Source of the DNA: a virus
Lineage: Duplodnaviria > Heunggongvirae > Uroviricota > Caudoviricetes
Direction: 5' to 3' (one strand)
DNA length: 40,123 bases
Virus record (IMG/VR): IMGVR_UViG_2537562231_000015
Span: 1 to 40,123 of that record
The position numbers and the translations under genes were made by a program. Below, piece by piece: positions 8,654 through 40,123 of the stretch; within the stretch, counting starts at the first letter, position 1; every line of letters begins with the position of its first letter. The notes below the pieces were generated by a model. That model was not told the origin of the DNA and did no database searches. It was given only the letters and a program-made list of their open reading frames with translations.

Positions 8654-9487
8654 TCAGCAATTGGTCAGAGTGTCAGCGGGGGCGTTACCGCCTGTTGCAC
8701 GCTGGCGGTAGTCCTGGCGGCTGTCTTCATGACTCAGCTTATTCACCAGTTCGTTAAAGGCGGTTTGCTGCTCCTGCAGAGCAGTCTCCAGCTCAGACAG
8801 GCGTTCTTCCTGCTCAGACAGGGATTTTTCGGTGCGTGCGCTCAGGTTCTGCTGCTCAGTGGCGACCAGCTCCACGGCCTTATGCACATCAGAGAACCGG
8901 GCGTCATCGGACTGCTCTTTTTTGGTAAACAGCGCCGTGACACGGGCAAACAGGGACGGCTTGTCCTCCTGGATTTCTTCCAGTTCGATCACCGTTTCCT
9001 CTGCAGCGGTAAAAAGATTGGCGGGATTCTGCTTGCGGTTTGTCAGCGGGTTATGGGCTGCACTGGCGCTGAATGTCAGCATTTCAGTGCCCAGACTGGC
9101 AGGGTCATCAGTGGCCGCCAGGCCGACCAGGTAGGCTTTGCCCGTATCAGCAAACTTCGGGCTGACTTCCATAGATGTGAATAATTTCTGGCCTTTTTTC
9201 ACCAGCTCCACCAGGGACTCCGTTGGCTCAACGTCGGCATACAGCGCCATCTTGCCCGCCAGCGGACCTTCCGTGATTTCTTCAGCAAACAGCGCCGTCA
9301 CCTTGCCGTAGCGGTTAAAGGTGCTGTCCGGCAGATAAGACTTAATGTGCTCAAGGTTAATCAGCGCGGTATACACCGCCGGGTTGTAGCTGGCTGCCAT
9401 CTGTTCCAGCCATTCACGCTGGATTTCACGTCCGTCGGTAGTGGCACCTTCCACCCCGATGCGAAAACGCTTTGCTTTCACTGTCAT
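8654..9487 (-). CDS. O: Capsid scaffolding protein O
   Basis: 277-aa ORF, acidic coiled-coil-like C-terminus, divergent from P. Confidence 0.85.
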   Translation of the reverse strand: MTVKAKRFRIGVEGATTDGREIQREWLEQMAASYNPAVYTALINLEHIKSYLPDSTFNRYGKVTALFAEEITEGPLAGKMALYADVEPTESLVELVKKGQKLFTSMEVSPKFADTGKAYLVGLAATDDPASLGTEMLTFSASAAHNPLTNRKQNPANLFTAAEETVIELEEIQEDKPSLFARVTALFTKKEQSDDARFSDVHKAVELVATEQQNLSARTEKSLSEQEERLSELETALQEQQTAFNELVNKLSHEDSRQDYRQRATGGNAPADTLTNC

Positions 9488-12466: not shown

Positions 12467-14248
12467 TTATATTTTAGCAAACGTTTCTAACGCCAAGCTA
12501 TCTGTTCTTTCTTTTATTAATGAATCATCCCATTTATGTTCTCTTGCTTCTGACTCACTAACAAACTCTGTAACTAATTTTAAATCAGATTTTTTATAAG
12601 ATTCTATTTTTTTGTGCAACTCATAATTCTTGCAATCTTCATTAAGTGAAAAACAGAGTGGTAGTAAATTACCAATCATACCCACGACTGACTCGTTAGT
12701 TTTGCTTTGAGATGATATGTGTTCCAAAGAAACTATATCCATTTTTAACTCTCGCGTCCCTCGTCTGATACGTTCCAACTTGTCAAAAATATAAACAATC
12801 AACTTCCTTTGCCCAGACTTTTTATTTGTATAAACAATATTCTTTGAAAATGCTTGTTTGAATATATTTTCTGAAGGCCCTTTCTGTGTAAAATAATCTA
12901 ATGCGTCATTAATAACACCCTCAACATCTCTTTTATTTAATGCCTTATTCATTCTTACTGCTAATACAGAATATTTTGCATCGATTCCAGATGGTCTTAG
13001 ACGACATACTGCATTAAACTTAAAGTGAAATGACTCTAAGGACTTCAAACATTCTATCAGCATTGATTGTGTAAGGGCTCTCGGTTTCTCTTTACGTTTT
13101 CTAAGTAATGAGAGTACAAATGGTCGAGGAATACTCACATTAAAAATCTCGAATGCTTTTAACGAGTTGTAAATTTCACGCTGATCAGGTTGAGGCCAGT
13201 CATCTGTATTTGGCGCTATTATTTTACAGTATAATTCAACATCATCATATAATTCGTTCAGAAATGATGCTGATGACAATAAAGTATTCTCATCTTGAAT
13301 CTCACGTTTAAAAGCACGATAAAGTTGATCTTCTCCAATATAATTATACTTAGAAAGCCACCACGTTCTAATATAATCAGCAATAGTGCTATTACTATCC
13401 CTAGACTCAATTTGAGTAACGATATAATCCCATTTTGTTTTTGCAATATCTACCGGATATGTTTGAGTGCAAGTTTGGAATACTTTATTCTTTATCAAAT
13501 CAATTGAACTTAAGTTTATCCCTCGAGCATTCAACACTTCAAAAATATCATAAGCATCATCCTCCTTACCTACAGATATTTTTACCAACTTCAAATAATT
13601 GGTAATCATTCTATATACAGCAGTCAAACAAAATATATAATCTTGGTTATTATAATGTTTTGCACCATCTCGCAACAATGCAGAACAGAGTGATTTCCTC
13701 CCTAGTTTTCTAGAAAGAAAAATTCCTGCATAACTTATACGTACATCCTCTTCACAAGATTCATCAACTTGATGCTCTTCGCGATCTTGATATTTTAACT
13801 TAAAATATGTTCTATCGCTATTTTTTGCTAATTTTTCAATAAATGTCTCACCATTTGAGGCTAATTGGCTTCTGCTAAATGTAGGACTCACAGTAACGAT
13901 ATATGTTTTAAATATATCATCCGCTAATGAATCTTGCCCTAAGGAACGCAATTTACGCGATATTAATGAAAGCAATATAGTAATAACTGAAAATCGTTGT
14001 TGTCCATCAACCACTTCTAATACATCATCACTATCTGCTCCAGAAAGAACAATAGTCCCTATAAAATATTCTGAACACTCCAAGTTCTGTCCATCTTCAT
14101 TCAACCTTATGTTTCTGACAATATCTTGCCATAATTCTTCAAGCTGAAGCTTTTCCCAACTAAACTCACGTTGATTACGTGGAATAACATATCTTTGTTT
14201 TACAGATAGAATGTTTTTTATATTTAGTGGTGTTGCATCAAAATTCAT
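12467..14248 (-). CDS. GmrSD-family (DUF262/ParB-like N-terminal, DUF1524-like C-terminal) putative modification-dependent nuclease
   Basis: 593-aa ORF; N-terminal YVIPRNQREFSW and VVDGQQR motifs typical of DUF262; C-terminal LEHI...GNLLPL resembles the DUF1524 His-Me finger; markedly AT-rich versus flanking phage genes. Confidence 0.65.
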   Translation of the reverse strand: MNFDATPLNIKNILSVKQRYVIPRNQREFSWEKLQLEELWQDIVRNIRLNEDGQNLECSEYFIGTIVLSGADSDDVLEVVDGQQRFSVITILLSLISRKLRSLGQDSLADDIFKTYIVTVSPTFSRSQLASNGETFIEKLAKNSDRTYFKLKYQDREEHQVDESCEEDVRISYAGIFLSRKLGRKSLCSALLRDGAKHYNNQDYIFCLTAVYRMITNYLKLVKISVGKEDDAYDIFEVLNARGINLSSIDLIKNKVFQTCTQTYPVDIAKTKWDYIVTQIESRDSNSTIADYIRTWWLSKYNYIGEDQLYRAFKREIQDENTLLSSASFLNELYDDVELYCKIIAPNTDDWPQPDQREIYNSLKAFEIFNVSIPRPFVLSLLRKRKEKPRALTQSMLIECLKSLESFHFKFNAVCRLRPSGIDAKYSVLAVRMNKALNKRDVEGVINDALDYFTQKGPSENIFKQAFSKNIVYTNKKSGQRKLIVYIFDKLERIRRGTRELKMDIVSLEHISSQSKTNESVVGMIGNLLPLCFSLNEDCKNYELHKKIESYKKSDLKLVTEFVSESEAREHKWDDSLIKERTDSLALETFAKI

Positions 14249-14368: not shown

Positions 14369-14387
14369 CTCGTATCCCCGCCACGCC
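14369..14387 (-). other. cos site of the P2/186-like prophage (19-nt cohesive-end sequence)
   Basis: Minus strand reads GGCGTGGCGGGGATACGAG flanked by AAAGCGGGC and CGCGCGC, homologous to P2 cos GGCGAGGCGGGGAAAGCAC and oriented toward Q. Confidence 0.6.
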
Positions 14388-22018: not shown

Positions 22019-23050
22019 ATGACCATCAGAAAACAGCCGAACGGAAAATGGTTGTGTGAGTGCTATCCCAATGGACGCAATGGCAAGCGCGTGCGTAAGC
22101 AATTTGCCACGAAAGGCGAAGCCATTGCGTTTGAAAGCTTCACAATGGAAGAAGTGAATAAAAAACCGTGGTTGGGTGAAAAGGATGATCGGCGACGCCT
22201 ATCAGAATTAATTGAGCTTTGGTATTCCCTGTATGGTCAGACACTCGCAGACCCCAAGCGCCTCATGGCGAAACTTAGAATTATCTGTAATGGTCTAGGC
22301 GACCCCATCGCCTCTGAGCTGACAGCCGGAGACTTTACGAAATACCGCGAAGCACGGTTAAAAGGTGAAATACGAAATGAAGATGGCACGCTTATGTCGC
22401 CCGTTAAGCCCCGCACGGTAAACCTTGAACAGCGCAATCTATCATCGGTGTTCGGTACATTAAAAAAACTAGGACACTGGTCAGCACCAAACCCGCTGGC
22501 AGGACTTCCGACCTTCAAAATTGCCGAAGGTGAGCTGGCTTTTCTTTCCACGGACGAAATCAAGCGCCTGTTGGCGGCATGTGCTGAATCTCAAAGCCCT
22601 AGCTTACTAATGATTGCAAAAATATGCCTAGCTACTGGCGCACGGTGGAGTGAAGCAGAAAATCTGCAGGGCCATCAGTTATCCAAATACCGCATCACTT
22701 ATACCAAGACGAAGGGCAAGAAAAACCGTACCGTGCCAATATCTCAGGATCTTTACAACGAACTCCCTAAAAACAGAGGAAGGCTATTCACCCCATGCAG
22801 AAAAGCCTTTGAACGGGCAGTAAAACGAGCTGGTATTGAACTGCCAGAGGGACAATGCACCCACGTTCTACGCCATACATTCGCCAGCCATTTCATGATG
22901 AACGGCGGAAACATACTGGTACTGCGCGATATTTTGGGCCATGCCGATATAAAAATGACGATGATTTACGCCCATTTTTCTCCAGACCATCTGGAAGATG
23001 CAGTAACGAAAAACCCTTTGAACTTTATATACTTGTCGAATAACATGTAA
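22019..23050 (+). CDS. int: Tyrosine integrase (P2/186 type)
   Basis: 343-aa ORF; C-terminal HVLRHTFASHFMMNGG...LGHADIKMTMIYAHF catalytic motifs. Confidence 0.9.
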   Translation: MTIRKQPNGKWLCECYPNGRNGKRVRKQFATKGEAIAFESFTMEEVNKKPWLGEKDDRRRLSELIELWYSLYGQTLADPKRLMAKLRIICNGLGDPIASELTAGDFTKYREARLKGEIRNEDGTLMSPVKPRTVNLEQRNLSSVFGTLKKLGHWSAPNPLAGLPTFKIAEGELAFLSTDEIKRLLAACAESQSPSLLMIAKICLATGARWSEAENLQGHQLSKYRITYTKTKGKKNRTVPISQDLYNELPKNRGRLFTPCRKAFERAVKRAGIELPEGQCTHVLRHTFASHFMMNGGNILVLRDILGHADIKMTMIYAHFSPDHLEDAVTKNPLNFIYLSNNM

Positions 23051-23072: not shown

Positions 23073-24086
23073 GTGATCTTAATCTTAAATATGAAACCTA
23101 ATTTAATTTCACGTAAACAGTACCAACACCTCAAAAATGAGTTAAATAGACTTGAGAGCTTACCATATAGACGAGGAAACAACCCAACCAACCTCAGAAT
23201 ATTAAAACTAAGAGAAGATCTAACAAACTCTCTTGTTGAATCCAGAAAAAGAAATTCAAAAAAAATTAATAGAGGAAATGTTAGCTGTATAATATGCAAG
23301 AAAAATTTCAAAAGTGCTCATGGCCTATATGAGCACTATCGCGCCAAGCATAGCAATATGATTGAACACCCTACCTCATTGTTTAATAAAGAAATAAATG
23401 GCAATACAACACTGCTTGAAAGCATTTCGCATCCTGTCACAAAAGGTATACCAATAGCAGAACACGATAAAAAAATATCATCCATTACGCTAAACAGGGA
23501 AACTAAATATTTCAATGTAGATGCGTATAATCTGGCATGCCTTTCATTAACAAAAAGTGAAGCAATAAAAATCGCTAAAGATGAATTATTATCAAGGCAG
23601 TTTCTTGGACAAAAAAACATTCTAGAACCTACTCTACCGCCAGTCATATTTATAAATCCCTCTGATACAATTAGTATACCAGTTGTCACAAAAGGCAATA
23701 CTCATCTGCAAACAATATTACAGCGTGACTCTGGCGAACAGGTTGACTTTAAAAAAAGGGTTCTAAAAAACTTCTCAAATGTATGCGCAATAACAGGTTA
23801 CAACCTCCCAGTATTGCAGGCATGTCACCTTGAACCATTTTCTCAGACCCAAAACCATAGAACCAACAATGGAATACCTCTTGAACCTACCCTTCATGCC
23901 TTGCTTGACCGAGGTCTACTAGCCATACATCCAGATAATTTAACTATTCATTTTGCTATCGATTGCTATTACAAAAATATATATGAAGGAAAAAACATCA
24001 AACCTCATAAGATTGATTTAGATAAAAATTCACTGCTAATAATTTGGAAGAACTTTCTTTTGAATGTTAAAAACAGCCAACCGTAA
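23073..24086 (+). CDS. Zinc-finger plus HNH-like nuclease domain protein (cargo gene)
   Basis: 337-aa AT-rich ORF; C2H2-like CIICKKNF..HGLYEHYRAKH near N-terminus; C-terminal CAITGYN...QACHLEPF...NGIPL...HALLDRGLLAI resembles HNH (HNH_2-like) fold. Confidence 0.55.
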   Translation: MILILNMKPNLISRKQYQHLKNELNRLESLPYRRGNNPTNLRILKLREDLTNSLVESRKRNSKKINRGNVSCIICKKNFKSAHGLYEHYRAKHSNMIEHPTSLFNKEINGNTTLLESISHPVTKGIPIAEHDKKISSITLNRETKYFNVDAYNLACLSLTKSEAIKIAKDELLSRQFLGQKNILEPTLPPVIFINPSDTISIPVVTKGNTHLQTILQRDSGEQVDFKKRVLKNFSNVCAITGYNLPVLQACHLEPFSQTQNHRTNNGIPLEPTLHALLDRGLLAIHPDNLTIHFAIDCYYKNIYEGKNIKPHKIDLDKNSLLIIWKNFLLNVKNSQP

Positions 24087-24213: not shown

Positions 24214-24258
24214 TGTAGGAATTTCGGACGCGGGTTCAACTCCCGCCAGCTCCACCAC
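24214..24258 (+). ncRNA. ssrA: 3'-terminal fragment of tmRNA gene ssrA (T-arm and acceptor 3' strand ending CCA); attachment-site core
   Basis: ATGTAGGAATTTCGGACGCGGGTTCAACTCCCGCCAGCTCCACCA matches the E. coli ssrA 3' end from memory; upstream sequence is unrelated AT-rich DNA, so only the 3' portion is present. Confidence 0.75.
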
Positions 24259-24417: not shown

Positions 24418-25051
24418 CCAATTCATGAAGGAGCGGCCAAATTGGCAAGAACGACACGCCCCCTGACCAACACAGAAGTACTGCGCGCTAAAGCGTTAGA
24501 AAAGGATCTAACGTTGCATGATGGCGATGGTCTTTTTCTACTCGTTAAAACGAACGGTAAGAAGTTATGGCGTTTCCGTTATCAACGTCCGGCAACAAAG
24601 CAACGGACAATGATGGGGCTAGGAGCCTTCCCAGCCCTTTCACTTGCTGACGCCCGACGCTTAAGAGCGGATTACCTTTCCTTGTTAGCCAACGGAATTG
24701 ACCCGCAAATTCAAGCTGAAATTGCAGAGGAACAGCAGCAAATCGCACAGGACAGTATTTTCTCGACGGTCGCCGCTAATTGGTTTCAGCTCAAAAGCAA
24801 AAGTGTTACCCCTGATTATGCAAAAGATATTTGGCGCTCATTGGAAAAAGATGTATTCCCCGCCGTTGGTGAGATGCCCGTTCAGCAGATCAAAGCTAGA
24901 ACATTGGTCGAAGCACTTGAGCCAGTCAAAGCTCGTGGGGCATTAGAGACTGTACGTCGTCTGGTGCAACGCATTAACGAAATAATGATTTATGCGGTTA
25001 ACACTGGCTTGATTGATGCAAACCCAGCATCAGGTGGGTAATGACTCCAAC

Positions 25052-25555
25052 TTATTGATAGTGTTTTATGTTCAGATAATGCCCGATGACTTTGTCATGC
25101 AGCTCCACCGATTTTGAGAACGACAGCGACTTCCGTCCCAGCCGTGCCAGGTGCTGCCTCAGATTCAGGTTATGCCGCTCAATTCGCTGCGTATATCGCT
25201 TGCTGATTACGTGCAGCTTTCCCTTCAGGCGGGATTCATACAGCGGCCAGCCATCCGTCATCCATATCACCACGTCAAAGGGTGACAGCAGGCTCATAAG
25301 ACGCCCCAGCGTCGCCATAGTGCGTTCACCGAATACGTGCGCAACAACCGTCTTCCGGAGCCTGTCATACGCGTAAAACAGCCAGCGCTGGCGCGATTTA
25401 GCACCGACATAGCCCCACTGTTCGTCCATTTCCGCGCAGACGATGACGTCACTGCCCGGCTGTATGCGCGAGGTTACCGACTGCGGCCTGAGTTTTTTAA
25501 ATGGCGGAAAATCGTGTTGAGGCCAACGCCCATAATGCGGGCGGTTGCCCGGCAT
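25052..25555 (-). CDS. insB: IS1 InsB
   Basis: 167-aa ORF matching IS1 InsB. Confidence 0.9.
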
Positions 25556-25749
25556 CCAACGCCATTCATGGCCATATCAATGATTTTCTGGTGCGTACCG
25601 GGTTGAGAAGCGGTGTAAGTGAACTGCAGTTGCCATGTTTTACGGCAGTGAGAGCAGAGATAGCGCTGATGTCCGGCGGTGCTTTTGCCGTTACGCACCA
25701 CCCCGTCAGTAGCTGAACAGGAGGGACAGCTGATAGAAACAGAAGCCAC
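25474..25749 (-). CDS. insA: IS1 InsA
   Basis: 91-aa [26 protein letters not shown]... matching IS1 InsA. Confidence 0.9.
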
Positions 25750-26411
25750 TGGAGCACCTCAAAAACACCATCATACACTAAATCAGTAAGTTGGCAGCAT
25801 CACCCATCAGGTGTTGGCATGGCCTTCGAAAAGCCAAAAAAACAAAACATGCCGACGCTTCGACCTGAAGAATTACCAAAGCTGATGCGTTCTTTAGTCA
25901 TGTCAAATCTGTCTATCCCGACTCGCTGTCTAATTGAATGGCAACTCCTGACTCTTGTGCGCCCTTCTGAAGCCTCCAGTACTCGGTGGGAAGAAATCGA
26001 TCTTCATGCAAAGCTCTGGACGATTCCTGCCGAACGGATGAAGGCTAAACGGGAACACATAATTCCTCTATCATCTCAGGCATTAGAGATTCTTAATGTG
26101 ATGAAGCCTATTAGTGCTCATCGTGAATATGTTTTTCCGAGTCGGAATGACCCAAAGAAACCAATGAACAGTCAGACTGCAAATGCAGCTTTAAAACGTA
26201 TTGGTTTTGGCGGAAAATTAGTTGCCCATGGATTACGTTCAATAGCAAGTACAGCCATGAATGAAGCTGGATTAAATCCTGATGTTATCGAGTCTGCCTT
26301 AGCCCACAGTGATAAAAATGAAGTTAGAAAAGCATACAATCGTTCTACTTATCTCGTGCAGCGAATTGAATTGATGGATTGGTGGGGAGAATACGTTAAA
26401 AATAAAAGGGG

Positions 26412-28121
26412 TTAGCCCCCCTTTTTTCTATACAATCTCAAGCACTCGTCCAATTCAATAAGTTGTGAATTACTTAATCGTTCTTTTATATAATAAAATA
26501 CATCTTTTACTGAAGCAATTTCTCTCATCGCTCTATTGCCCATTAAAACATAGTCTTGATACATTCCAATTCTGAAGAATGAATTTGCTGCGCAAGCCAA
26601 CATAATTACTTCGGTCATTGCAGGGAGATTTAAACGATTTGGCTTAAATTTATTTTTATCATATTCGTTAAAACAAGACAAAAAGTTTCTCAATGTTTTT
26701 ATATCAGCAATACCATTTGAAACATTAGTAAATGATTTATATAAATATGGAGAGCATGAATACCAATATATATCACAAACAAGTATAGAACTTCGCTTGT
26801 TCGCAAACTCAAGCCATTCACCCTTATTTCCATTATGCATTAAGTTATATAAGAAATAAAAATGCAACAACCCATTTTTATATTCTTTTTTGGATTGATC
26901 ATAGATTATCTCAATTTTGTCCATGATAGACTGCAAATCAGTGACTTCGCCTAAATTTAACATATTTAGGTATTCACTAAACCACTTCGCTATACTTTTA
27001 GCTGTAAATCCGTCTGCATTCCAGAGCCAATATTGTGCAGATATCTCTGCAACCATTACACCCGATGTTTCCATCACCCAATTAACAGACTCTCTTTTTT
27101 GACTGTAGTTTTTACGGCAAAAATTTATTATCACATGGCGAAGAAGTCGAAGCAATCCAGAGTAACTGAAGTGAGGTTCGCCAAAAAGAACCAGACAATC
27201 ACCAACAGGATTGTAGGCTTTCGAGATCATTGCATCAAGTGGCTTAAGCTCATGGACAAAAGAAGACCTGATTTTGTATAAATTATCTAAAGCTCTACTA
27301 AGGAAGCTATAGCGGATTGGATATCTCTCTGTTTCATTGAAATAATTTTCTTCAAGATTTTTCAGTATAAAATCTTTGAACCTTTTTTGTAATCTGAATT
27401 GTTTGCCTTCAATAAGTATTGATTTAATTTTACAAACATCCTCACCAGGCATATGCTCAAATACAGACTCTAATTCACCTCTGGTTTTTTGATCGTAGTC
27501 ATCCCAATCAGACTTATAGTTATCATTTCTTTGAGACAAAGACTCCAAGGCATAGACTAACATGGAATAAGTCAGGTCAAAGTTGGTTGACAATGATTCT
27601 TTTGAATCACTAATTATTTTTAACGCTGCCATTAAAGATTTAAAGGCAGATCTATTTAGATTCACTACATCTTTAATAAAAGCAGAAAACCCAGAGACAT
27701 CATCAAATGAAACTCTTCGATTAATCTCCACTAAATATGGGGCAACTTCAAGCGCAATTTTTGAGTGATGTTTATTAAAATTTGATAATGCACATATTTT
27801 TTTAACCGATTCTTTTTCTACTCTAGCCACACAATCAAAATAGAATTCCCATAATAAAATAAATTGTTGCCTATAATCCTCATCACCAGCCCTAACTACG
27901 ACTCCAGCTTCAATTCGTTCTGGTTTTTCGGTCAGGAGAGTATAGTTTACCACATAACAGTTTATACCATCATGACTTATTTTATTTGCTTTAAAAAGAG
28001 GGGAGGTGTTTTCCACCGAGAAAGACACATCAACATTTGAATAAAAAACAAATGTGCCATCGTGTTTTTCTATTTTATCTAAATCAAAGAACACTCCAGC
28101 TGATATCTGAAACATACTCAT
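26412..28121 (-). CDS. Hypothetical 569-aa protein in the P4 int-cos variable slot (candidate anti-phage defence)
   Basis: Long AT-rich ORF with no recognised family; contains an R-x4-H motif (RSSFVH); sits where P4 carries gop/beta/cII. Confidence 0.6.
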   Translation of the reverse strand: MSMFQISAGVFFDLDKIEKHDGTFVFYSNVDVSFSVENTSPLFKANKISHDGINCYVVNYTLLTEKPERIEAGVVVRAGDEDYRQQFILLWEFYFDCVARVEKESVKKICALSNFNKHHSKIALEVAPYLVEINRRVSFDDVSGFSAFIKDVVNLNRSAFKSLMAALKIISDSKESLSTNFDLTYSMLVYALESLSQRNDNYKSDWDDYDQKTRGELESVFEHMPGEDVCKIKSILIEGKQFRLQKRFKDFILKNLEENYFNETERYPIRYSFLSRALDNLYKIRSSFVHELKPLDAMISKAYNPVGDCLVLFGEPHFSYSGLLRLLRHVIINFCRKNYSQKRESVNWVMETSGVMVAEISAQYWLWNADGFTAKSIAKWFSEYLNMLNLGEVTDLQSIMDKIEIIYDQSKKEYKNGLLHFYFLYNLMHNGNKGEWLEFANKRSSILVCDIYWYSCSPYLYKSFTNVSNGIADIKTLRNFLSCFNEYDKNKFKPNRLNLPAMTEVIMLACAANSFFRIGMYQDYVLMGNRAMREIASVKDVFYYIKERLSNSQLIELDECLRLYRKKGG

Positions 28122-28412: not shown

Positions 28413-28431
28413 GTGCTTTCCCCGCCTCGCC
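28413..28431 (-). other. cos site of the P4-like satellite (identical to P2 19-nt cohesive end)
   Basis: Minus strand reads GGCGAGGCGGGGAAAGCAC exactly, within AAAGCGGGCGGGCGAGGCGGGGAAAGCACTGCGCGC. Confidence 0.8.
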
Positions 28432-28595: not shown

Positions 28596-29168
28596 TTACA
28601 CAGACTGACGTGATGCCAGTTGCGCACTTTTACGCGAAAAAATCATGTTCTGCGCAGGGGTGAATTTTTCACGGCTGTCATCCACCGAAGCCGCGTCAGG
28701 CCTGAATCCGATGGTCGTTAAAATGTCGCTATCCTGTGCGGAATAATTAATTTTTTCACCCTTCGCAAGCCAGGACAGGAGGGCTTCACGCAGGGCATCT
28801 GTGGCACGCTGTATGGCACAGTTTCGGGCAATGGCCGTCAGATCACTGTAGCCCATCAGCTCCGGTGCCAGTGCCGCCGCCAGTGCTGTGCCGTGCTGCT
28901 GCATAAAATCATTCAGCCGGTCGCGGATGCTGATGTGCTGAACGGCTTCATGCGAACGAATATAACGACCGGCGGCCTGATTCACCTGCCATTTTCTGAC
29001 TTCGATAATATTGCGTAATTCGTCCAGGCGACTGACGTTTCTGCCTTCTCCTGACAGAAGCCGCAGATATTCCTGTTCGGCCGCAGCCAGCTCATTTTTG
29101 CGTTGCAGCCATGCTGCTTTGTTATTCTGACAGGTGTCAAAGGCCTGCTGTAAGGCTGTGCTTTCCAT
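28596..29168 (-). CDS. psu: Psu (polarity suppression / capsid decoration) protein
   Basis: 190-aa ORF, same length as P4 Psu, in the sid-delta-psu-cos arrangement. Confidence 0.85.
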   Translation of the reverse strand: MESTALQQAFDTCQNNKAAWLQRKNELAAAEQEYLRLLSGEGRNVSRLDELRNIIEVRKWQVNQAAGRYIRSHEAVQHISIRDRLNDFMQQHGTALAAALAPELMGYSDLTAIARNCAIQRATDALREALLSWLAKGEKINYSAQDSDILTTIGFRPDAASVDDSREKFTPAQNMIFSRKSAQLASRQSV

Positions 29169-29241
29169 CGTTATCTCTTTCTCATCATGCTGAAGAATAA
29201 AAATACGGTGTGTGGCGACGGCCGGTGTTAACCGGCAGCCC

Positions 29242-29742
29242 TCATTCCAGACGCAGCGAATATGATTGTGTTTTTAACCGTACTGGCGGCAGTTCCTGTT
29301 TTTCATGCAGGCGTTCTGCCAGTTCGTCCGGCGTGACCGGGCGGACAATGAAGCGGGTGATGGTCTGAAGCGTTTTAAACACCAGACCACAGCCCGGATC
29401 CGTGCACACATAAAAACGCTCGGTGACTTCCTGAGACAGACGCCGCGATGTTCTTGACAGTGCAAGGCCTTTACATCTCCGACAACAATATCCGGTAACA
29501 AGCATTCTTTTCGGGCGTTTCATACTGCCGGAGGCCGACGTCAGTGAATCGCGGTATCTCTGTTTGCCTGAAATGTATTCCATTCCTGAATCTTTACTGT
29601 CAGAGAAAAAGCTTTCACTCGCTTCAAATGTCGCAGAGCAATAAATATTCCGGCACTGTGCAATCATTATCTTGGTGCCATCGTCCATGAAATGTGCGCG
29701 ACGGGTGTGAGCAACATGTCCACACGACGGGCAGTAAATCAT
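29242..29742 (-). CDS. delta: Delta late-gene transactivator (tandem Ogr-like zinc finger)
   Basis: 166-aa ORF starting MIYCPSCGH with C-x2-C...C-x4-C pattern, a second Cys cluster further on; same length as P4 Delta. Confidence 0.85.
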   Translation of the reverse strand: MIYCPSCGHVAHTRRAHFMDDGTKIMIAQCRNIYCSATFEASESFFSDSKDSGMEYISGKQRYRDSLTSASGSMKRPKRMLVTGYCCRRCKGLALSRTSRRLSQEVTERFYVCTDPGCGLVFKTLQTITRFIVRPVTPDELAERLHEKQELPPVRLKTQSYSLRLE

Positions 29743-30473
29743 GACAGCAGTCCTCTGGCCTTAAGCTCTGCTCCCTGCTGGTCTATTTTGTCCTGCCACA
29801 CCTTGCGCTGTGCCGGTGTGCCTGCCACCTCATAATCCATGTGCGGGAGTGTTGCCGCTGACAGTCCGGTCAGCCGGAGAACCGGCTCGCCGGTGAGGCT
29901 GATTTGCATCTGTTTAATTTTCTGTTCCAGCGATGATTTCACCTGCTGCATGACAGCCTTTTCCGGTGCGACGTAGCCCTGATGGCCGGTGGTGTTGGCG
30001 AGCGGATTTTCCTGTACCAGGATACTCAGATGCATTGCCCGGACAAGCGCCTCACAGGTTTCATTCAGGGCGTGTTCCAGCTCATGCTCTGCATACAGAC
30101 TCAGAAGGTGATGATGTGCCTTCCGGTAGGCGGTGGCCGTGCTGTCACACGCCCCTTTCAGGCGTTCACGTTCAAAATTCAGCACCACGGCCAGATTGTC
30201 ATATTCCTGTACCAGCTCCCGGCGTGCCACGCGCTCAATGTGGCGCTGTTTCAGCTCGTCGCTCAGGACACCACCGGCTGCACGAAAGGCTGTGCGCCAG
30301 TCATCAGCGTCATTTCCGTCGGCCTGCGCCAGCGCATTTTTTTCCTGCTCTGCCCGTTCAATGGCCTTGACGGTCTCATCCATCAGTCGGGCGTTCTCAA
30401 GATGAGCGGCTCTGGCCTTTTCCAGTTGTGCCAGTGCGGGTTGCAGATATTCAGGGATGGTGTTGTCAGACAT
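29739..30473 (-). CDS. sid: Sid capsid size-determination protein
   Basis: ORF 29739..30491 trimmed to MSDNTIPEYLQ (244 aa, P4 Sid length); overlaps delta start. Confidence 0.85.
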   Translation of the reverse strand: MSDNTIPEYLQPALAQLEKARAAHLENARLMDETVKAIERAEQEKNALAQADGNDADDWRTAFRAAGGVLSDELKQRHIERVARRELVQEYDNLAVVLNFERERLKGACDSTATAYRKAHHHLLSLYAEHELEHALNETCEALVRAMHLSILVQENPLANTTGHQGYVAPEKAVMQQVKSSLEQKIKQMQISLTGEPVLRLTGLSAATLPHMDYEVAGTPAQRKVWQDKIDQQGAELKARGLLS

Positions 30474-30516
30474 TTTCCGGCTCCTCGTCACTTCAGATTA
30501 AGAAAATTGTGACGTA

Positions 30517-30573
30517 CACCGGACAACAACACGACGCATTGCAGATGTGCCAGCCCTGACACAGGAGACTCAT
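30517..30573. promoter_or_regulatory. Two TGT-N12-ACA dyads in the sid upstream region (candidate Delta/Ogr sites for Psid and a divergent late promoter)
   Basis: TGTgacgtacaccggACA at 30517-30534 and TGTgccagccctgacACA at 30556-30573. Confidence 0.35.
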
Positions 30574-30639
30574 CCTCAGACCGGCAAGCCAGGAAAAGGT
30601 CGCAGGAAAAACCGGCTTACTGTTTGTTTTTTTATATTT

Positions 30640-30770
30640 TACTGTTCACCTCTGTTCACCATAAGAAAAAAGATAAGTAATACAGTAAGTTAAAGGGTGA
30701 ACAATCGCAGTAATGACTGTTCACCGTCTGTTCACCACTGTTCACCCGCTCATGGACTTTTTGTGCTGTT
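30640..30770. repeat. P4-type replication origin iterons (TGTTCACC octamers)
   Basis: Six copies of TGTTCACC or its complement at 30643, 30653, 30696, 30718, 30729 and 30739. Confidence 0.6.
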
Positions 30771-31025
30771 TACTACTGTTTGTTTTTATTAATTCGCCGT
30801 GAATGAATAAGAAGAAACGATTTGTATTTCACTATAAAAATTACGAATTGCATTAAGTGGCTTTAAATGACTTTAAGTGGGAATGAACAAAAAACACACA
30901 GTCATTGTAAGGCTGCCGGAACAAATCCCCCCTGTTGCGTCTGCCAAAAATATTCACAAAATAAAGCGCTACCCGAAGCCGGACGGACTTATCCGGTGCT
31001 GTATGGACATTAACGAGGTAGCCCG

Positions 31026-31292
31026 ATGCAAGCTGTTTTTTCTTCCCCGTCTCCCGCCCCTGTGACGCCACTGATGCCGCTGCCGGACATCACGCAGGAG
31101 CGTTTTTTACGTCTGCCGGAAGTGATGCACCTGTGCGGCCTGTCACGCTCGACCATCTATGAACTCATCCGTAAGGGGGAATTTCCGCCGCAGGTGAGTC
31201 TTGGCGGTAAAAATGTGGCCTGGCTGCACTCTGAAGTCACCGCATGGATGGCCGGACGCATTGCCGGACGCAAACGGGGGTACGACGCATGA
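31026..31292 (+). CDS. vis: Vis/AlpA-family excision regulator (P4 orf88 equivalent)
   Basis: 88-aa ORF with AlpA-like HTH ([27 protein letters not shown]); GAGGTAG SD. Confidence 0.75.
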
Positions 31293-31325
31293 TGATGCCC
31301 GCTCTGCAAAAACTCCCTTTTTCTG

Positions 31326-31355
31326 GCTTGCCTTTTTCCGGCATTTGCGGATATA
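31326..31355 (+). promoter_or_regulatory. Candidate sigma70 promoter (PLE-like)
   Basis: TTGCCT, 18-bp spacer, TATAGT; upstream of the RNA-immunity region. Confidence 0.35.
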
Positions 31356-31510
31356 GTTTTTCCGCTGCCGCAAAATCGGCAGCCGGGCGTAGGAACCCGA
31401 GTTACTTCAAGGCGACATATGACGCGCCATGCGTCTTTTTTTACGTCGTTGCTTCGGCACACCTGTTTTTCTGGCTGTGGTTTTTAAACCGTAGCCTCTG
31501 TCAGATAATG

Positions 31511-31590
31511 GTGGTCCGGGCGGGGCAGCCTTCGGGCTGGCCGGTTTCCTTGAAGGCCGGTATTCCTACCCCCGTCCGGGCTACCACCCA
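31511..31590 (+). ncRNA. cI: Candidate P4-type CI immunity RNA
   Basis: Structured GC-rich segment containing CCTTGAAGG and TATTCCTAC, complementary to repeated GTAGGAAC...ACTTCAAGG elements at 31385-31412 and 31595-31640. Confidence 0.45.
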
Positions 31591-31645
31591 TGAGCGTAGG
31601 AACTCCAGTGGTAGCTGTAACTGTTACTTCAAGGAGGCTGCCATC

Positions 31646-31843
31646 ATGGCTACAACCCTTACCCCCTCACACCCTGAATTTGTCTTTGTGTTTGCGGCTG
31701 TCCGTCGCGCAGGCCGTCATCCCCGTATCTGTATGCTTCGCACCGTCGCCGGTGATGAACGCAGCGCCCGCCGTTCCCTTGTCCGTGACTATGTGCTCTC
31801 CCTTGCTGCCCGTCTGCCGGTGGTGGAGGTGTCCCGTGCGTAA
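31646..31843 (+). CDS. Small protein downstream of the immunity RNA
   Basis: 65-aa ORF with AAGGAGG SD that overlaps the downstream target repeat. Confidence 0.4.
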
Positions 31844-32100
31844 TAAAAAAGCCCCTCAGACCGTCTCAGCACGTCATGACGCCCGTGAACACCTCAGCAT
31901 TGAGGCTTACCATAAGCTCAACCGCGCCAGCGCCGTATCCCAGTTTGTTGGGGGTGATTTGATTCACCGTGAACTCTCCGGCCTGCATCAGCTCTACATT
32001 CCGCATATTTTCAGCGTAAGCGTAAACTGACCGCCGTATGTAGCCATCAGACGAGAATTGGTAACTTAGACGCCCATCTGATATAGACGGACATCTAAGT

Positions 32101-32526
32101 ATGGAATTACAGGACTGGCGAAAAGAACCTCGTAAAAACTATTCGAATGAATTCAAACTTCGTATGGTGGAACTGGCATCACAACCTGGAGCTTGTGTTG
32201 CACAGATTGCACGTGAAAATGGCGTCAATGATAATGTTATTTTCAAATGGCTCAGGCTCTGGCAGAACGAAGGGCGTGTTTCGCGGCGTCTTCCGGTAAC
32301 GACCTCTTCTGACACTGGCGTTGAATTATTACCTGTAGAAATAACGCCGGATGAGCAGAAAGAACCTGTGGCGGCCATTGCGCCGTCTTTATCCACTTCC
32401 ACTCAGACCAGAGTCAGTGCCAGTTCCTGCAAGGTGGAATTCCGTCACGGTAACATGACGCTGGAAAATCCATCGCCAGAGCTGCTCACAGTGTTGATCC
32501 GTGAACTGACCGGGAGGGGAAGATGA
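32101..32526 (+). CDS. IS66-family accessory protein (orf1/TnpA)
   Basis: 141-aa ORF, first gene of the IS66 three-gene array. Confidence 0.8.
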   Translation: MELQDWRKEPRKNYSNEFKLRMVELASQPGACVAQIARENGVNDNVIFKWLRLWQNEGRVSRRLPVTTSSDTGVELLPVEITPDEQKEPVAAIAPSLSTSTQTRVSASSCKVEFRHGNMTLENPSPELLTVLIRELTGRGR

Positions 32527-32873
32527 TCTCACTCCCATCAGGTACCCGTATCTGGCTCGTTGCCGGCGTTACCGATATGCGTAAATCCTTCAACGGACTG
32601 GGAGAACAGGTACAACATGTGCTGAATGATAATCCCTTCTCCGGTCACCTGTTTATCTTCCGTGGCCGACGGGGTGACACCGTCAAAATTCTTTGGGCTG
32701 ATGCTGATGGTCTGTGCCTGTTCACCAAACGCCTGGAGGAAGGCCAGTTTATCTGGCCTGCGGTACGTGACGGCAAGGTATCCATTACCCGCTCGCAACT
32801 GGCAATGCTCCTCGATAAGCTGGACTGGCGTCAGCCAAAAACATCCAGCCGTAACTCACTGACAATGTTGTAA
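32523..32873 (+). CDS. IS66-family Orf2 (TnpB)
   Basis: 116-aa ORF overlapping orf1 stop; conserved IS66 orf2 size. Confidence 0.85.
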   Translation: MISLPSGTRIWLVAGVTDMRKSFNGLGEQVQHVLNDNPFSGHLFIFRGRRGDTVKILWADADGLCLFTKRLEEGQFIWPAVRDGKVSITRSQLAMLLDKLDWRQPKTSSRNSLTML

Positions 32874-32903
32874 AAAACTCCTGACCGCATTATAAAAACG
32901 GTC

Positions 32904-34517
32904 ATGAGTCAGAAATACCTCATTCGCATCGCAGAGCTGGAAAGGTTGCTCTCTGAGCAGGCTGAAGCCCTCCGTCAGAAAGACCAGCAACTGAGTCTGG
33001 TTGAAGAGACGGAAGCCTTCCTGCGCTCTGCACTGACACGTGCCGAAGAAAAGATCGAAGAAGATGAACGGGAAATAGAACATCTGCGGGCTCAGATAGA
33101 AAAACTGCGCCGGATGCTGTTCGGTACCCGTTCTGAAAAACTGCGTCGTGAAGTTGAACTGGCTGAGGCTCTGCTGAAACAACGTGAACAGGACAGCGAT
33201 CGTTACAGTGGGCGGGAAGACGATCCTCAGGTTCCCCGCCAGTTGCGACAGTCGCGCCATCGTCGTCCGTTACCGGCACACCTTCCCCGTGAAATACACC
33301 GCCTGGAGCCAGAAGAAAGCTGTTGCCCGGAGTGTGGCGGTGAGCTGGATTATCTGGGGGAAGTCAGCGCTGAACAGCTGGAACTGGTGAGCAGTGCCCT
33401 GAAAGTGATCCGCACAGAACGGGTAAAAAAAGCCTGTACAAAATGTGACTGTATTGTTGAAGCACCGGCGCCGTCCCGCCCGATAGAGCGTGGTATCGCG
33501 GGCCCCGGATTACTTGCCCGCGTGTTAACGGGAAAATACTGCGAACATCTGCCACTGTATCGTCAGAGTGAAATCTTTGCCCGCCAGGGTGTCGAACTGA
33601 GCCGGGCCTTACTCTCCAACTGGGTTGACGCGTGCTGCCAGTTAATGACACCGGTGAATGATGCCCTGTACCGTTATGTAATGAACACCCGCAAGGTTCA
33701 CACTGATGACACACCGGTAAAGGTACTGGCACCGGGTCAGAAAAAGGCGAAAACAGGGCGTATCTGGACGTATGTCCGGGATGATCGCAATGTGGGTTCG
33801 TCATCTCCTCCAGCGGTCTGGTTCGCGTACTCGCCGAACCGGCAGGGGAAACACCCGGAGCAACACCTCCGCCCCTTCCGGGGTATCCTGCAGGCGGATG
33901 CGTTCACAGGTTACGACAGGTTGTTCAGTGCAGAACGTGAAGGTGGTGCACTGACAGAAGTTGCGTGCTGGGCCCATGCCCGGCGAAAAATCCACGATGT
34001 ATACATCAGCAGCAAAAGTGCGACGGCAGAAGAAGCCCTGAAGCGAATCAGTGAACTGTACGCCATCGAGGATGAAATACGGGGATTACCGGAGTCAGAG
34101 CGTCTTGCCGTCAGGCAGCAGCGAAGCAAAGTGTTACTGACGTCGCTGCATGAATGGATGGTGGAGAAGAATGGTACGCTGTCGAAAAAATCCAGACTGG
34201 GCGAAGCGTTCAGCTATGTACTGAATCAGTGGGATGCCCTCTGTTATTACAGTGATGACGGTCTGGCGGAGGCGGATAATAATGCTGCGGAAAGAGCGCT
34301 TCGTGCAGTCTGTCTCGGAAAGAAAAACTTTATGTTCTTTGGCAGCGATCACGGCGGCGAGCGTGGAGCACTGTTGTACGGGCTGATCGGCACCTGCCGT
34401 CTGAACGGTATCGATCCGGAAGCGTATCTGCGCCATATCCTGAGCGTACTGCCGGAATGGCCTTCCAACCGAGTTGACGAACTCCTGCCATGGAACGTAG
34501 TACTCACCAATAAATAA
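32904..34517 (+). CDS. IS66-family transposase (TnpC)
   Basis: 537-aa ORF with N-terminal coiled coil, zinc-finger-like CPECGG and C-terminal DDE region. Confidence 0.9.
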   Translation: MSQKYLIRIAELERLLSEQAEALRQKDQQLSLVEETEAFLRSALTRAEEKIEEDEREIEHLRAQIEKLRRMLFGTRSEKLRREVELAEALLKQREQDSDRYSGREDDPQVPRQLRQSRHRRPLPAHLPREIHRLEPEESCCPECGGELDYLGEVSAEQLELVSSALKVIRTERVKKACTKCDCIVEAPAPSRPIERGIAGPGLLARVLTGKYCEHLPLYRQSEIFARQGVELSRALLSNWVDACCQLMTPVNDALYRYVMNTRKVHTDDTPVKVLAPGQKKAKTGRIWTYVRDDRNVGSSSPPAVWFAYSPNRQGKHPEQHLRPFRGILQADAFTGYDRLFSAEREGGALTEVACWAHARRKIHDVYISSKSATAEEALKRISELYAIEDEIRGLPESERLAVRQQRSKVLLTSLHEWMVEKNGTLSKKSRLGEAFSYVLNQWDALCYYSDDGLAEADNNAAERALRAVCLGKKNFMFFGSDHGGERGALLYGLIGTCRLNGIDPEAYLRHILSVLPEWPSNRVDELLPWNVVLTNK

Positions 34518-34655
34518 GCGTCAATACGGTGCTCCGTTGACGCTTACTTTTCAGCTACCTGAATGAAGATATTGATTTTGTGCTGAATGAGCTGAAAGCC
34601 AAAGGCCTGTGCCGCGATTTTCTCGCCCAGCAGAAAGACCGGGGAGACAGGACGC

Positions 34656-35111
34656 ATGTTTGATTTTCCCCAGCCCGGTGAGATTTACCGTTCTGCCGGT
34701 TTTCCCGATGTGGCCGTGGTCGGCATTCTGGAAGACGGTATTCCGTGGGAAATGCCGTACCGCTGCCCGGACATTGTCTGGAACCCGTACCGCCGTAAAT
34801 TCAGTATCCTTGTGCGTATCCTCGCTGACGGGCGCACCACAGACATCCCGCTGGGGCGTTTTCTGCGGGAATTTACCTGTGACCGTCCTGACCTGTTCAA
34901 ACGCAGCCCCGTAAACCGGCATGCGGTACTGAAAGAAATGGCCGGAGACCCGGAATTACAGAAATGGCGGGAGAAATATCTGGATATTTACCCGCAGGAC
35001 ACTGTTCCGGTCAGCCGGGCGGCACCGGTGGCGCGGGAATGGCGGGAAATTCCCCGCACGGAGCCTGACCCGGAAATCACCCCGGATAACAGTTACCGCA
35101 ATTATCTGTAA
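34656..35111 (+). CDS. P4 orf151-like protein
   Basis: 151-aa ORF, same length and position as P4 orf151. Confidence 0.55.
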   Translation: MFDFPQPGEIYRSAGFPDVAVVGILEDGIPWEMPYRCPDIVWNPYRRKFSILVRILADGRTTDIPLGRFLREFTCDRPDLFKRSPVNRHAVLKEMAGDPELQKWREKYLDIYPQDTVPVSRAAPVAREWREIPRTEPDPEITPDNSYRNYL

Positions 35112-35246
35112 TTAAAAAACGACACCCGAAAAATTAAATGTGCGTATTCGCGCAGGGATACGCACGTCTTCAGGAGACGCAGATATGCCTTATCAGTTAA
35201 TGCAACCGGCACGGAATGCAGTCATCTGTCACAGGGAGGAAAGCAA

Positions 35247-35567
35247 ATGAAAACACCCTTACCGCCCGTCTTACGCGCTGCCCTTTACCGTCGCGCTGTC
35301 GCCTGTGCCTGGCTGACCGTGTGCGAACGTCAGCACCGCTACCCGCATCTCACCCTTGAGTCACTGGAGGCGGCCATCGCCGCTGAGCTGGAAGGCTTTT
35401 ATCTGCGCCAGCACGGTGAGGAAAAAGGGCGTCAGATAGCCTGTGCCCTGCTGGAAGATTTAATGGAATCCGGCCCCCTGAAGGCCGCGCCGTCGCTGTC
35501 CTTTCTCGGGCTGGTTGTGATGGATGAACTCTGTGCCCGTCACATAAAAGCGCCGGTACTGCACTGA
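35247..35567 (+). CDS. P4 orf106-like protein
   Basis: 106-aa ORF directly upstream of alpha. Confidence 0.55.
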
Positions 35568-35581
35568 AGGAGAACAACACC

Positions 35582-37915
35582 ATGAAAATGAACGTAACCG
35601 CCACCGTCAGCCATGCGCTCGGCCACTGGCCGCGTATTCTCCCGGCGCTGGGGATTCAGGTGCTGAAAAACCGTCATCAGCCCTGTCCGGTCTGTGGCGG
35701 GAGTGACCGCTTCCGTTTTGATGACAGGGAGGGGCGCGGCACCTGGTACTGCAATCAGTGTGGTGCCGGTGACGGCCTGAAACTGGTTGAAAAGGTGTTT
35801 GGTGTCTCCCCGTCCGACGCGGCCGCAAAGGTGGCTGCCGTGACCGGCAGTCTGCCCCCGGCTGACCCGGCAGTGACGGCCGCCGCCGTTGCTGAAACAG
35901 ACGCTGCCCGGAAGAACGCCGCCGCACTGGCACAAACCCTGATGGCAAAAACCCGTCCCGGAACCGGTAACGCCTACCTGACCCGCAAGGGCTTTCCCGG
36001 CCGGGAATGCCGGATGCTGACCGGCACACACAGAGCCGGTGGCGTGAGCTGGCGCGCCGGTGACCTTGTGGTGCCACTGTATGACGACAGCGGCGAACTG
36101 GTTAACCTTCAGTTAATCAGTGCTGACGGCCGTAAGCGTACCCTGAAAGGCGGACAGGTCAGGGGCACCTGTCACACCCTTGAAGGACAGAATCAGGCCG
36201 GAAAACGTCTGTGGATAGCGGAGGGATACGCGACCGCACTTACCGTACATCACCTGACCGGTGAAACGGTGATGGTGGCGCTTTCTTCCGTGAACCTCCT
36301 TTCTCTGGCCAGCCTTGCCCGGCAGAAGCATCCGGCCTGTCATATTGTCCTTGCTGCTGACCGTGACCTCAGCGGTGACGGCCAGACAAAAGCCGCCGCA
36401 GCCGCAGATGCGTGTGAAGGTGTTGTTGCCCTGCCGCCGGTCTTCGGTGACTGGAATGATGCCTTCACGCAGTACGGCGGGGAAGCCACCCGTAAGGCCA
36501 TTTATGATGCCATCCGGCCACCGGCTGAAAGCCCGTTCGACACCATGAGCGAAGCGGAGTTTTCCGCCATGAGTACCAGCGAAAAGGCCATGCGTATCTA
36601 TGAGCATTACGGCGAGGCGCTCGCGGTCGATGCCAACGGCCAGCTTCTGTCCCGTTATGAAAATGGTGTCTGGAAGGTGCTGCCACCACAGGACTTTGCC
36701 CGGGATGTGGCCGGGCTGTTTCAGCGGCTGCGCGCGCCGTTCTCCTCCGGGAAGGTGGCCTCCGTGGTGGACACCCTGAAGCTGATTATTCCGCAGCAGG
36801 AAGCCCCCTCCCGCCGCCTGATTGGCTTTCGTAACGGCGTGCTCGACACGCAGAGCGGCACGTTCCACCCGCACAGTCCGTCACACTGGATGCGCACCCT
36901 GTGCGATGTGGATTTCACCCCGCCGGTGGAAGGGGAAACGCTGGAAACCCACGCCCCCGCGTTCTGGCGCTGGCTTGACCGTGCCGCCGGTGGTCGTGCG
37001 GAAAAACGCGACGTGATTCTGGCCGCACTGTTTATGGTGCTGGCAAACCGCTACGACTGGCAGCTCTTTCTGGAGGTGACCGGTCCCGGCGGCAGCGGCA
37101 AAAGTATCATGGCCGAAATAGCCACCCTGCTGGCCGGGGAAGATAACGCCACGTCGGCCACCATTGAGACGCTGGAATCCCCGCGTGAACGTGCCGCGTT
37201 AACTGGCTTCTCACTGATACGCCTGCCGGACCAGGAAAAATGGAGCGGCGACGGAGCCGGACTCAAGGCCATCACCGGCGGCGATGCGGTGTCCGTTGAC
37301 CCGAAATACCGGGATGCGTACTCCACGCACATCCCGGCGGTGATTCTGGCCGTGAACAATAACCCGATGCGCTTCACCGACCGCAGCGGCGGCGTGTCAC
37401 GCCGGCGGGTGATTATTCACTTCCCGGAACAGATAGCCCCGCAGGAGCGCGACCCGCAGCTTAAGGACAAAATCACCCGCGAGCTGGCGGTCATCGTGCG
37501 TCACCTGATGCAGAAGTTCAGCGACCCGATGCTCGCCCGGTCACTGCTTCAGTCCCAGCAGAACTCAGACGAGGCGCTGAACATCAAACGGGATGCCGAC
37601 CCGACGTTTGATTTTATCGGCTATCTGGAAACCCTGCCGCAGACCAGCGGCATGTATATGGGGAACGCGAGTATCATCCCGCGCAATTACCGTAAATACC
37701 TCTATCACGCCTATCTGGCCTACATGGAGGCAAACGGCTACCGGAACGTACTCAGTCTGAAAATGTTCGGGCTGGGGCTGCCGGTGATGCTGAAGGAATA
37801 CGGACTGAATTACGAGAAGCGCCATACCAAACAGGGGATACAGACCAACCTGACGCTGAAAGAGGAAAGCTACGGCGACTGGCTGCCAAAATGTGACGAC
37901 CCTGCAACAACCTGA
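35582..37915 (+). CDS. alpha: Alpha primase-helicase (P4 replication protein)
   Basis: 777-aa ORF, same length as P4 alpha; N-terminal zinc-binding primase motif CPVCGGSDRFRFDD...WYCNQCG. Confidence 0.9.
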   Translation: MKMNVTATVSHALGHWPRILPALGIQVLKNRHQPCPVCGGSDRFRFDDREGRGTWYCNQCGAGDGLKLVEKVFGVSPSDAAAKVAAVTGSLPPADPAVTAAAVAETDAARKNAAALAQTLMAKTRPGTGNAYLTRKGFPGRECRMLTGTHRAGGVSWRAGDLVVPLYDDSGELVNLQLISADGRKRTLKGGQVRGTCHTLEGQNQAGKRLWIAEGYATALTVHHLTGETVMVALSSVNLLSLASLARQKHPACHIVLAADRDLSGDGQTKAAAAADACEGVVALPPVFGDWNDAFTQYGGEATRKAIYDAIRPPAESPFDTMSEAEFSAMSTSEKAMRIYEHYGEALAVDANGQLLSRYENGVWKVLPPQDFARDVAGLFQRLRAPFSSGKVASVVDTLKLIIPQQEAPSRRLIGFRNGVLDTQSGTFHPHSPSHWMRTLCDVDFTPPVEGETLETHAPAFWRWLDRAAGGRAEKRDVILAALFMVLANRYDWQLFLEVTGPGGSGKSIMAEIATLLAGEDNATSATIETLESPRERAALTGFSLIRLPDQEKWSGDGAGLKAITGGDAVSVDPKYRDAYSTHIPAVILAVNNNPMRFTDRSGGVSRRRVIIHFPEQIAPQERDPQLKDKITRELAVIVRHLMQKFSDPMLARSLLQSQQNSDEALNIKRDADPTFDFIGYLETLPQTSGMYMGNASIIPRNYRKYLYHAYLAYMEANGYRNVLSLKMFGLGLPVMLKEYGLNYEKRHTKQGIQTNLTLKEESYGDWLPKCDDPATT

Positions 37916-39353: not shown

Positions 39354-40123
39354 GTAAGCGACTCGTCAGAACCGTATTGATATTTACTGAGAGCTCAGAT
39401 CAACTTTCCAGGGCAACAGATCGCGTACCCGGTTTGCCGGCCAGTCCTGGATATGTTCAATGACGTAACGCAGCCACTTTTCTGGCTCCACATTGTTCAG
39501 ACGGCATGTGCCGATCAGCGAGTACAACACCGCCGCATGTTCACCACCGCTGTCGGAACCCGCGAACAGCCAGTTTTTCCGGCCTACGGCCACTCCCCGT
39601 AAGGCGTTCTCTGCGATGTTGTTGTCGATTTCCACCCAGCCATTACTGCAGTACACGTTCAGGGCCTCCCACTGTTTCAGCAGGTATGCGAACGCTTTTG
39701 CCGTATCCGAGTGACGCGACAGTGTTTTCATCTGAGTCTGTATCCAGTCATACAGTGACTGCATCAGTGGCGCAGCTCTGGCTTTTCTTGCTGCCAGACG
39801 CTGTTCTGCTGAACATCCCCGGACTTCTGCCTCGATGGCATACAGTTCACCGATACGCTGCAGGGCTTCCGTGGTGATATCGGTTGGCGCTCTTGCATGC
39901 ACATCGTGGATTTTTCTCCGGGCATGGGCCATACACGCGGCTTCCGTTATTCTGCCGGATTCGTATAACGCCCGGTAGCCACCGTAAGCATCGGCCTGAA
40001 GCACTCCGCTGTAACCGGCCAGGTGATTTTGTGGATGGATGCCTTTCCGGTCCGGGCTGTACGCGAACCAGACCGCCGCAGGCATCTGTGAACCGGCGTT
40101 ACGGTCATCACGGACGTAGACCC
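39354..40123 (-). mobile_element. Second IS66-family element, partial (runs off window)
   Basis: Terminal GTAAGCG... at 39354 located 30 bp beyond the transposase stop, same geometry as the first IS66 copy. Confidence 0.8.
39384..40123 (-). CDS. IS66-family transposase C-terminal portion (partial at window edge)
   Basis: Translation aligns with the C-terminal part of the TnpC at 32904-34517 but is clearly divergent. Confidence 0.85.

Follow-up and report, generated by a model that had tools for sequence, protein, structure and literature searches.

The DNA analysed here is a 40,123 nt stretch (IMG/VR record IMGVR_UViG_2537562231_000015; hereafter the window, meaning that stretch at its full length) from Escherichia coli in which a P2-family prophage lies in tandem with a P4-type satellite integrated at ssrA. 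The left operon of the satellite carries eps, the gene of the P4 helper derepression protein, and this gene is split by a complete insertion sequence (IS) of the IS66 family, ISEc23 (Table 1). An IS66-family element sitting precisely in an epsilon-like gene had been proposed from the letters of the sequence in the original prediction, and that reading of the insertion was confirmed as correct to the base. The insertion follows the standard pattern of the IS66 family, an 8 bp duplication included, and cuts Eps to 60 of its 95 residues plus 4 foreign ones. That ISEc23 transposed into codons 58-60 of eps, in a P4-type satellite at ssrA in E. coli, is very likely; the consequences discussed below are predictions from sequence.

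Other E. coli genomes and plasmids hold copies, annotated in RefSeq as 'IS66-like element ISEc23', to which the element is 100 % identical over its full length. Its ends, cut from the sequence by script, are imperfect terminal inverted repeats that both open with GTAAGCGT; the left inverted repeat (IRL) begins GTAAGCGTAAACTGACC and the right inverted repeat (IRR) GTAAGCGTCAACGGAGC, each led by GTAAGCG, the terminal signature of the IS66 family. Between these ends the open reading frames (ORFs) tnpA, tnpB and tnpC are co-oriented and give Pfam matches in the three-ORF organisation of the family. The assignment to IS66 thus stands, both on the identity to ISEc23 and on the TnpB_IS66 and DDE_Tnp_IS66 domains. 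The proposed 8 bp target-site duplication (TSD) also survived re-examination of the IS ends. The direct repeat TTTTCAGC is perfect over 8 bp and does not extend past 8 bp, a match with a chance probability of about 1.5e-5 at fixed positions. Alignment of the flanks to the P4 genome yields two blocks, P4 8492-7996 and 8003-4291, which overlap by exactly 8 bp (7996-8003). A duplication of 8 bp is likewise found at a second ISEc23 copy, in strain RM9387.

Removal of the element and one TSD copy restores the gene. Segment 31836-32015 joined to 34556-34663 gives 288 nt in frame, with 95 codons plus a TGA stop, as had been anticipated from the GTG start at 31836 and its GGAGG Shine-Dalgarno sequence. 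Alignment to P4 Eps had been named as the check on identity, and the restored product is identical to it (NP_042039, annotated as helper derepression protein) at 94 of 95 positions, the sole difference being Q36 for R36. The reconstructed protein also matches PF25738, 'Derepression protein family', over positions 2-95 of 95 (E=2.4e-50, 168.7 bits against a cut-off of 27); the Pfam match and the full-length match to P4 Eps apply to the reconstructed protein only. Position and size, the grounds on which P4 epsilon had been suggested, agree with this identity. As in the P4 left operon, the gene lies between the cI/ash region and orf151 in the order eps-orf151-orf106(cnr)-alpha, and its TGA (34661-34663) overlaps the ATG of orf151 at 34656 (ATGTTTGA), again as predicted. 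The uninterrupted 288 nt occurs at 100 % identity in every one of 30 genomes among the matches listed, and 720 records hold it at at least 99 % identity. An empty site is present in the sister satellite of strain SCPM-O-B-7615, with 99.9 % identity across the site.

Table 1. Features of the split eps locus, of the satellite around it and of its boundary with the neighbouring prophage (window coordinates)
Feature	Position	Strand	Details
eps 5' part	31836..32015	+	codons 1-60; GTG start; residues 1-60 as in P4 Eps except Q36/R36
Shine-Dalgarno GGAGG of eps	31825-31829	+	6 nt ahead of the GTG start
eps 3' part	34556..34663	+	codons 61-95 plus TGA; now untranslated
Present ORF	31836..32030	+	64 aa: 60 Eps residues plus VSVN; TGA inside the left end of the IS
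ISEc23 (IS66 family)	32016..34547	+	2,532 bp; orientation as that of the eps operon
TSD, left copy TTTTCAGC	32008..32015	.	P4 coordinates 7996-8003
TSD, right copy TTTTCAGC	34548..34555	.	direct repeat
IS66 tnpA	32101..32526	+	141 aa; Pfam HTH_Tnp_1, E=5e-12
IS66 tnpB	32523..32873	+	116 aa; PF05717 TnpB_IS66, E=1e-36
IS66 tnpC, DDE transposase	32904..34517	+	537 aa; LZ_Tnp_IS66, zf-IS66, DDE_Tnp_IS66 (E=9e-98), DDE_Tnp_IS66_C
orf151	34656..35111	+	ATG overlaps the eps stop; 151 codons
cnr / orf106	35247..35567	+	DUF5375
alpha primase-helicase	35582..37915	+	777 aa; intact; downstream of the IS in the same operon; in a block of 98.4 % identity with P4
CI immunity RNA	31504..31591	+	Rfam C4 family, 86 bits, E=4e-16; upstream of eps
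seqA/isrK-like target of CI RNA	31351-31441		Rfam
vis / orf88	31026..31292	+	AlpA family
sid-delta-psu operon	28596..30491	-	intact; in a block of 98.1 % identity with P4
P4 cos cohesive-end sequence GGCGAGGCGGGGAAAGCAC	28413..28431	-	exact match
Satellite integrase, split	24442..26415	+	IS1 at 25037-25804, 9 bp TSD CATCAGGTG; reconstructs to 398 aa
HNH-domain ORF	23073-24086		with the ssrA 3' fragment (~24215-24258), sole separator of prophage and satellite

The reading frame that opens at the eps start now ends shortly inside the element. The lost part holds 12 of the 24 columns that are invariant among 34 aligned family members (from Escherichia, Salmonella, Citrobacter, Enterobacter, Klebsiella, Serratia, Edwardsiella and Buttiauxella), namely Y61, D65, V69, L70, E72, L73, K74, K76, G77, L78, C79 and F82. 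An AlphaFold model of a 98 % identical homologue (P0001) is all-helical with a mean pLDDT of 72.5; there the break falls inside a long helix (51-75) in which and beyond which residues 61-80 have a pLDDT of 85-92, and a further helix (79-89) is also lost. An active C-terminal fragment of Eps was considered and ruled out, as the frame of the 3' part has a stop at 34538 and a GTG at 34580 as its sole in-frame start. With truncation at residue 60 and the conserved block 61-82 gone, eps in the source strain is a pseudogene. The allele, eps::ISEc23, is almost certainly null, because it removes the C-terminal block that is the most conserved in the family. The P4 E protein binds the C repressor of P2 and so derepresses the helper prophage (PMC2995052). 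Since the conserved C-terminal third of Eps is gone, it is reasonable to suppose that the satellite may be unable to induce a helper.

The effect on the remainder of the operon depends on its state. In P4 lysogens the CI RNA causes premature termination ahead of the replication genes, which are then not expressed (PMC4825925). The left operon would thus already be terminated upstream of eps in a lysogen, so that the insertion would be phenotypically silent in the prophage and was probably fixed neutrally. Once the operon is switched on, 2.5 kb of foreign DNA has to be transcribed before orf151, cnr and alpha are reached, as ISEc23 precedes these genes and shares their orientation. The gene orf151 is no longer translationally coupled to eps, and a polar effect on alpha is plausible. 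Promoter and terminator consensus matches in a scan of 30400-35700 were at or below shuffle expectation, and no claim of an IS-borne promoter or terminator is made, as the scan counts were not above that expectation.

The ORF just ahead of the gene (window 31244-31843; 3918-4508 in locus L007) matches Phage_ASH, PF10554, in related loci. Within the aligned part of the satellite, the immunity region (31448-31519 and 31519-32015) resembles P4 least: about 70 nt of it are unaligned to P4, and the next block has 94.4 % identity, compared with 98 % elsewhere. This hints at an immunity specificity other than that of P4.

The neighbouring prophage takes up the first 24 kb of the window (within 1-24260) and carries genes for capsid, terminase and portal, the replication gene A and an integrase (22019-23050). 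The same tandem of P2-family prophage and satellite is found in PSS-08-2 and in other E. coli genomes. The repressor of this prophage is a 210 aa CI of the 186 type (PF07022 and PF16452), accompanied by a 186-type CII. P2 C is a protein of 99 aa from a family without similarity to that of 186 CI, and Eps has been documented against P2 C only (PMC2995052). A search of the available literature found no statement on whether P4 Eps derepresses 186-type prophages. P4 is said not to derepress prophage 186 and to rely on delta. In this prophage a GmrSD-type gene (window 12467-14248; PADLOC HEC-06/Orf5, E=7e-75) fills the slot between portal gene Q and the helper cos. The cos-like core of the helper, GGCGTGGCGGGGATACGAG (14369-14387, - strand), differs from the P4-type cos of the satellite at 5 of 19 positions.

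The P4-like core of the satellite (int, psu, delta, sid, alpA/vis, eps, alpha and cos) is present in full and in P4 order, with int and eps each split by an IS. Identity to P4 is 94-98 % over cos, psu, delta, sid, vis, the immunity region, eps, orf151, cnr, alpha and the crr repeats, and the genes from cos to crr, eps excepted, have the same lengths as in P4. The satellite is placed between a 3' fragment of ssrA and ypjA, the CP4-57 site. The insertion in the integrase (window 25028-25813) is a 768 bp IS1, removal of which yields an ORF of 398 aa whose DNA is identical to that of the PSS-08-2 integrase. Knocked out by IS elements in two independent places, the satellite is very probably immobile and unable to excise; excision, replication and packaging with a helper are predicted to be lost, because the integrase is split by IS1 and an IS also lies upstream of alpha.

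Between int and psu lies a hotspot gene (window 26412-28121, - strand) whose product of 569 aa has no match in Pfam or NCBIfam. A weak PADLOC match to Cas13-ApeA (E=7e-6) makes it a candidate defence gene. In SCPM-O-B-7615 the homologous hotspot gene is itself split by IS1. At the far end of the window a second IS66-family element (39354-40123) starts with GTAAGCGACTCG, has its transposase on the - strand and, going by how a related genome is annotated, is ISCro1-like. The element cuts ypjA short and reaches the contig end, and the assembly probably broke at this element.

The eps::ISEc23 allele is rare and was found in one strain only. A 32-mer spanning the left junction had no match in a search of one genome per species. 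Among 5,426 complete E. coli genomes, a 400 bp query over the junction retrieved RM9387 only, where ISEc23 sits at another insertion site, and the allele itself was absent. The exact 64 aa product occurs in the gene index solely in contig ADUM01000119.1 (listed under two samples) and in the Logan assembly of sequencing run SRR040457. Among the 976 complete E. coli genomes with eps, 973 hold a copy covering at least 80 % of the gene.

Other disruptions of eps and its operon do occur. In different strains a foreign tail (AYFHERRS...) follows eps at four different positions (proteins P0029, P0015, P0009 and P0005). In OZ042436.1 (4696-7274 in locus L007) this tail belongs to a 2,579 bp IS21-family element with istA and istB, which has an 8 bp TSD at eps nt 188-195, 15 nt downstream of the ISEc23 site. 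A Salmonella genome holds eps in two pieces (P0074/P0086). In RM9387 (6763-9294 in locus L001) ISEc23, with 2 mismatches and in the same orientation, stands directly after orf151 and before cnr, with the 8 bp TSD AATTAAAA. The RM9387 insertion differs from the present one in position and that of OZ042436.1 in both position and element, and both are independent events. One further apparent truncation of eps (P0073, locus L009) was not counted, as the whole locus is full of frameshifts that are probably sequencing errors. A Logan contig of run ERR5376561 (4501-5456 in locus L010) joins eps, broken off after residue 49, to late genes of the P2 type (gpR, gpS and baseplate), which is either a deletion joining satellite and helper or a misassembly.

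In the account that fits the locus best, ISEc23 landed in codons 58-60 of eps, duplicated 8 bp and truncated Eps. With a null eps the satellite would make no protein that binds a P2 C-type repressor and would not derepress a helper. When the operon is switched on, orf151, cnr and alpha would probably be expressed at a lower level, owing to the 2.5 kb of foreign DNA and the lost coupling. Together with the IS1 in the integrase this would leave the satellite to persist as an island, decaying or domesticated, in which sid-delta-psu and the hotspot gene are retained.

Several points weigh against parts of this account. The 186-type CI weakens the claim of lost induction of the neighbouring helper, leaving the broken state of eps unaffected. 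Another eps copy or a helper of the P2 C type could sit elsewhere in the genome, and either insertion, that in eps or that in int, may have come first. With respect to polarity, the + strand of the IS contains no significant intrinsic terminator in the scan, and the three ORFs of the IS are co-oriented and translated. Near the right end of the IS the sole structure is the IRR hairpin, which runs into UUUU from the TSD; with a centroid of -19.2 kcal/mol and a z of -2.1 for the 91 nt stretch, it makes a weak case for a terminator. The anti-Rho factor Psu of P4 could relieve Rho-dependent polarity (PMC12360218).

The loss of eps may also have had no consequence, the IS being neutral decay in a satellite whose resident helper is not sensitive to Eps or which was already dead through IS1. 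This is a serious possibility that is held tentatively. The adjacent prophage has CI and CII of the 186 type, the only documented target of Eps (PMC2995052) is a repressor dissimilar to 186 CI, the integrase is split, and the cos cores of helper and satellite differ. However, other genomes in which a 186-type prophage and the satellite stand in this tandem, e.g. PSS-08-2, retain an intact eps, Eps could act on superinfecting phages or on other resident phages of the P2 C type off the contig, and IS1 need not predate the hit in eps, as the two IS events could have occurred in either order. That the insertion was selected, because a knock-out of eps or of the operon spares the host helper induction and death and locks the satellite as a defence island, is improbable. 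The independent disruptions of eps, with the IS21-family end read through at four positions, the split eps of Salmonella, the ISEc23 between orf151 and cnr in RM9387 and the intact sid-delta-psu and hotspot gene of this satellite would all suit such selection. Disruption is nevertheless rare, as the 973 of 976 genomes indicate, the allele is confined to a single strain, and an operon silenced by CI RNA in the prophage state offers little to select on. IS elements have also hit int in this satellite and, in the sister strain, the hotspot gene, as random decay predicts. Given the other eps hits and these two IS1 insertions, the IS hits in eps, int and hotspot gene look like ordinary IS bombardment of a silent prophage region and not like targeted inactivation.

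An artefact of assembly, in which the IS was placed by the assembler and eps is truly intact, is very hard to credit. The window is the whole of contig ADUM01000119.1 of a draft assembly (GCA_000184765.2), ISEc23 is multi-copy in E. coli, and the contig end is another IS66-family element, all of which would make such an error conceivable. Against this, misassembly does not make target duplications, and the TSD here is perfect and of a length typical of IS66. The left junction is moreover crossed in the separate Logan assembly of run SRR040457, which extends 30 nt into the IS from the eps side. Transposition of ISEc23 into eps is accordingly retained as the explanation of the locus.

Both the IS and the gene that it hit are known, the satellite is of a well-studied type, and the event is an ordinary instance of prophage-gene disruption by a mobile element. 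A functional consequence of the loss of eps is plausible from the sequence, but it is overshadowed by the second knock-out, in the integrase, and by doubt that Eps acts on the helper next to it. In practice, both eps and int are to be recorded as defective in this satellite, which does not rank as a functional P4-like element. A survey of P4-like satellites took the Phage_ASH profile PF10554 as 'epsilon' (PMC8628076). Surveys that do so miss the real eps (PF25738), and knock-outs of the present kind would go unnoticed in them. It is improbable that eps and the left operon are a recurrent target of inactivation, hit at several positions by IS66- and IS21-family elements, in an IS-driven domestication by which hosts silence the helper-induction and replication module of the satellite and retain its defence cargo free of the risk of satellite-triggered lysis. 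Enrichment of eps knock-outs, if true, would bear on satellite domestication, and the 973 of 976 genomes with a full-length copy argue against it. Beyond annotation, eps::ISEc23 is of little consequence.

In comparison with known systems, the split gene agrees with P4 eps in its GTG start, in its 8 nt overlaps with the upstream ORF and with orf151 and in gene order, and its flanks are 94-98 % identical to P4 DNA; the gene is intact in P4, whereas here it is split after codon 60 by ISEc23. The eps copy of ISEc23 shows no differences from the element as known elsewhere, and the insertion site alone is new. P4 itself has int, cII, beta and gop, whereas the satellite at ssrA has another integrase, of 398 aa, and another hotspot gene. 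Placement between the ssrA 3' fragment and ypjA is shared with the cryptic P4-like prophages of the CP4-57 type. Compared with these prophages, the present satellite resembles P4 itself much more closely, at 98 % over about 7 kb, and its P4 genes of the psu-to-alpha region are intact except for eps and int.

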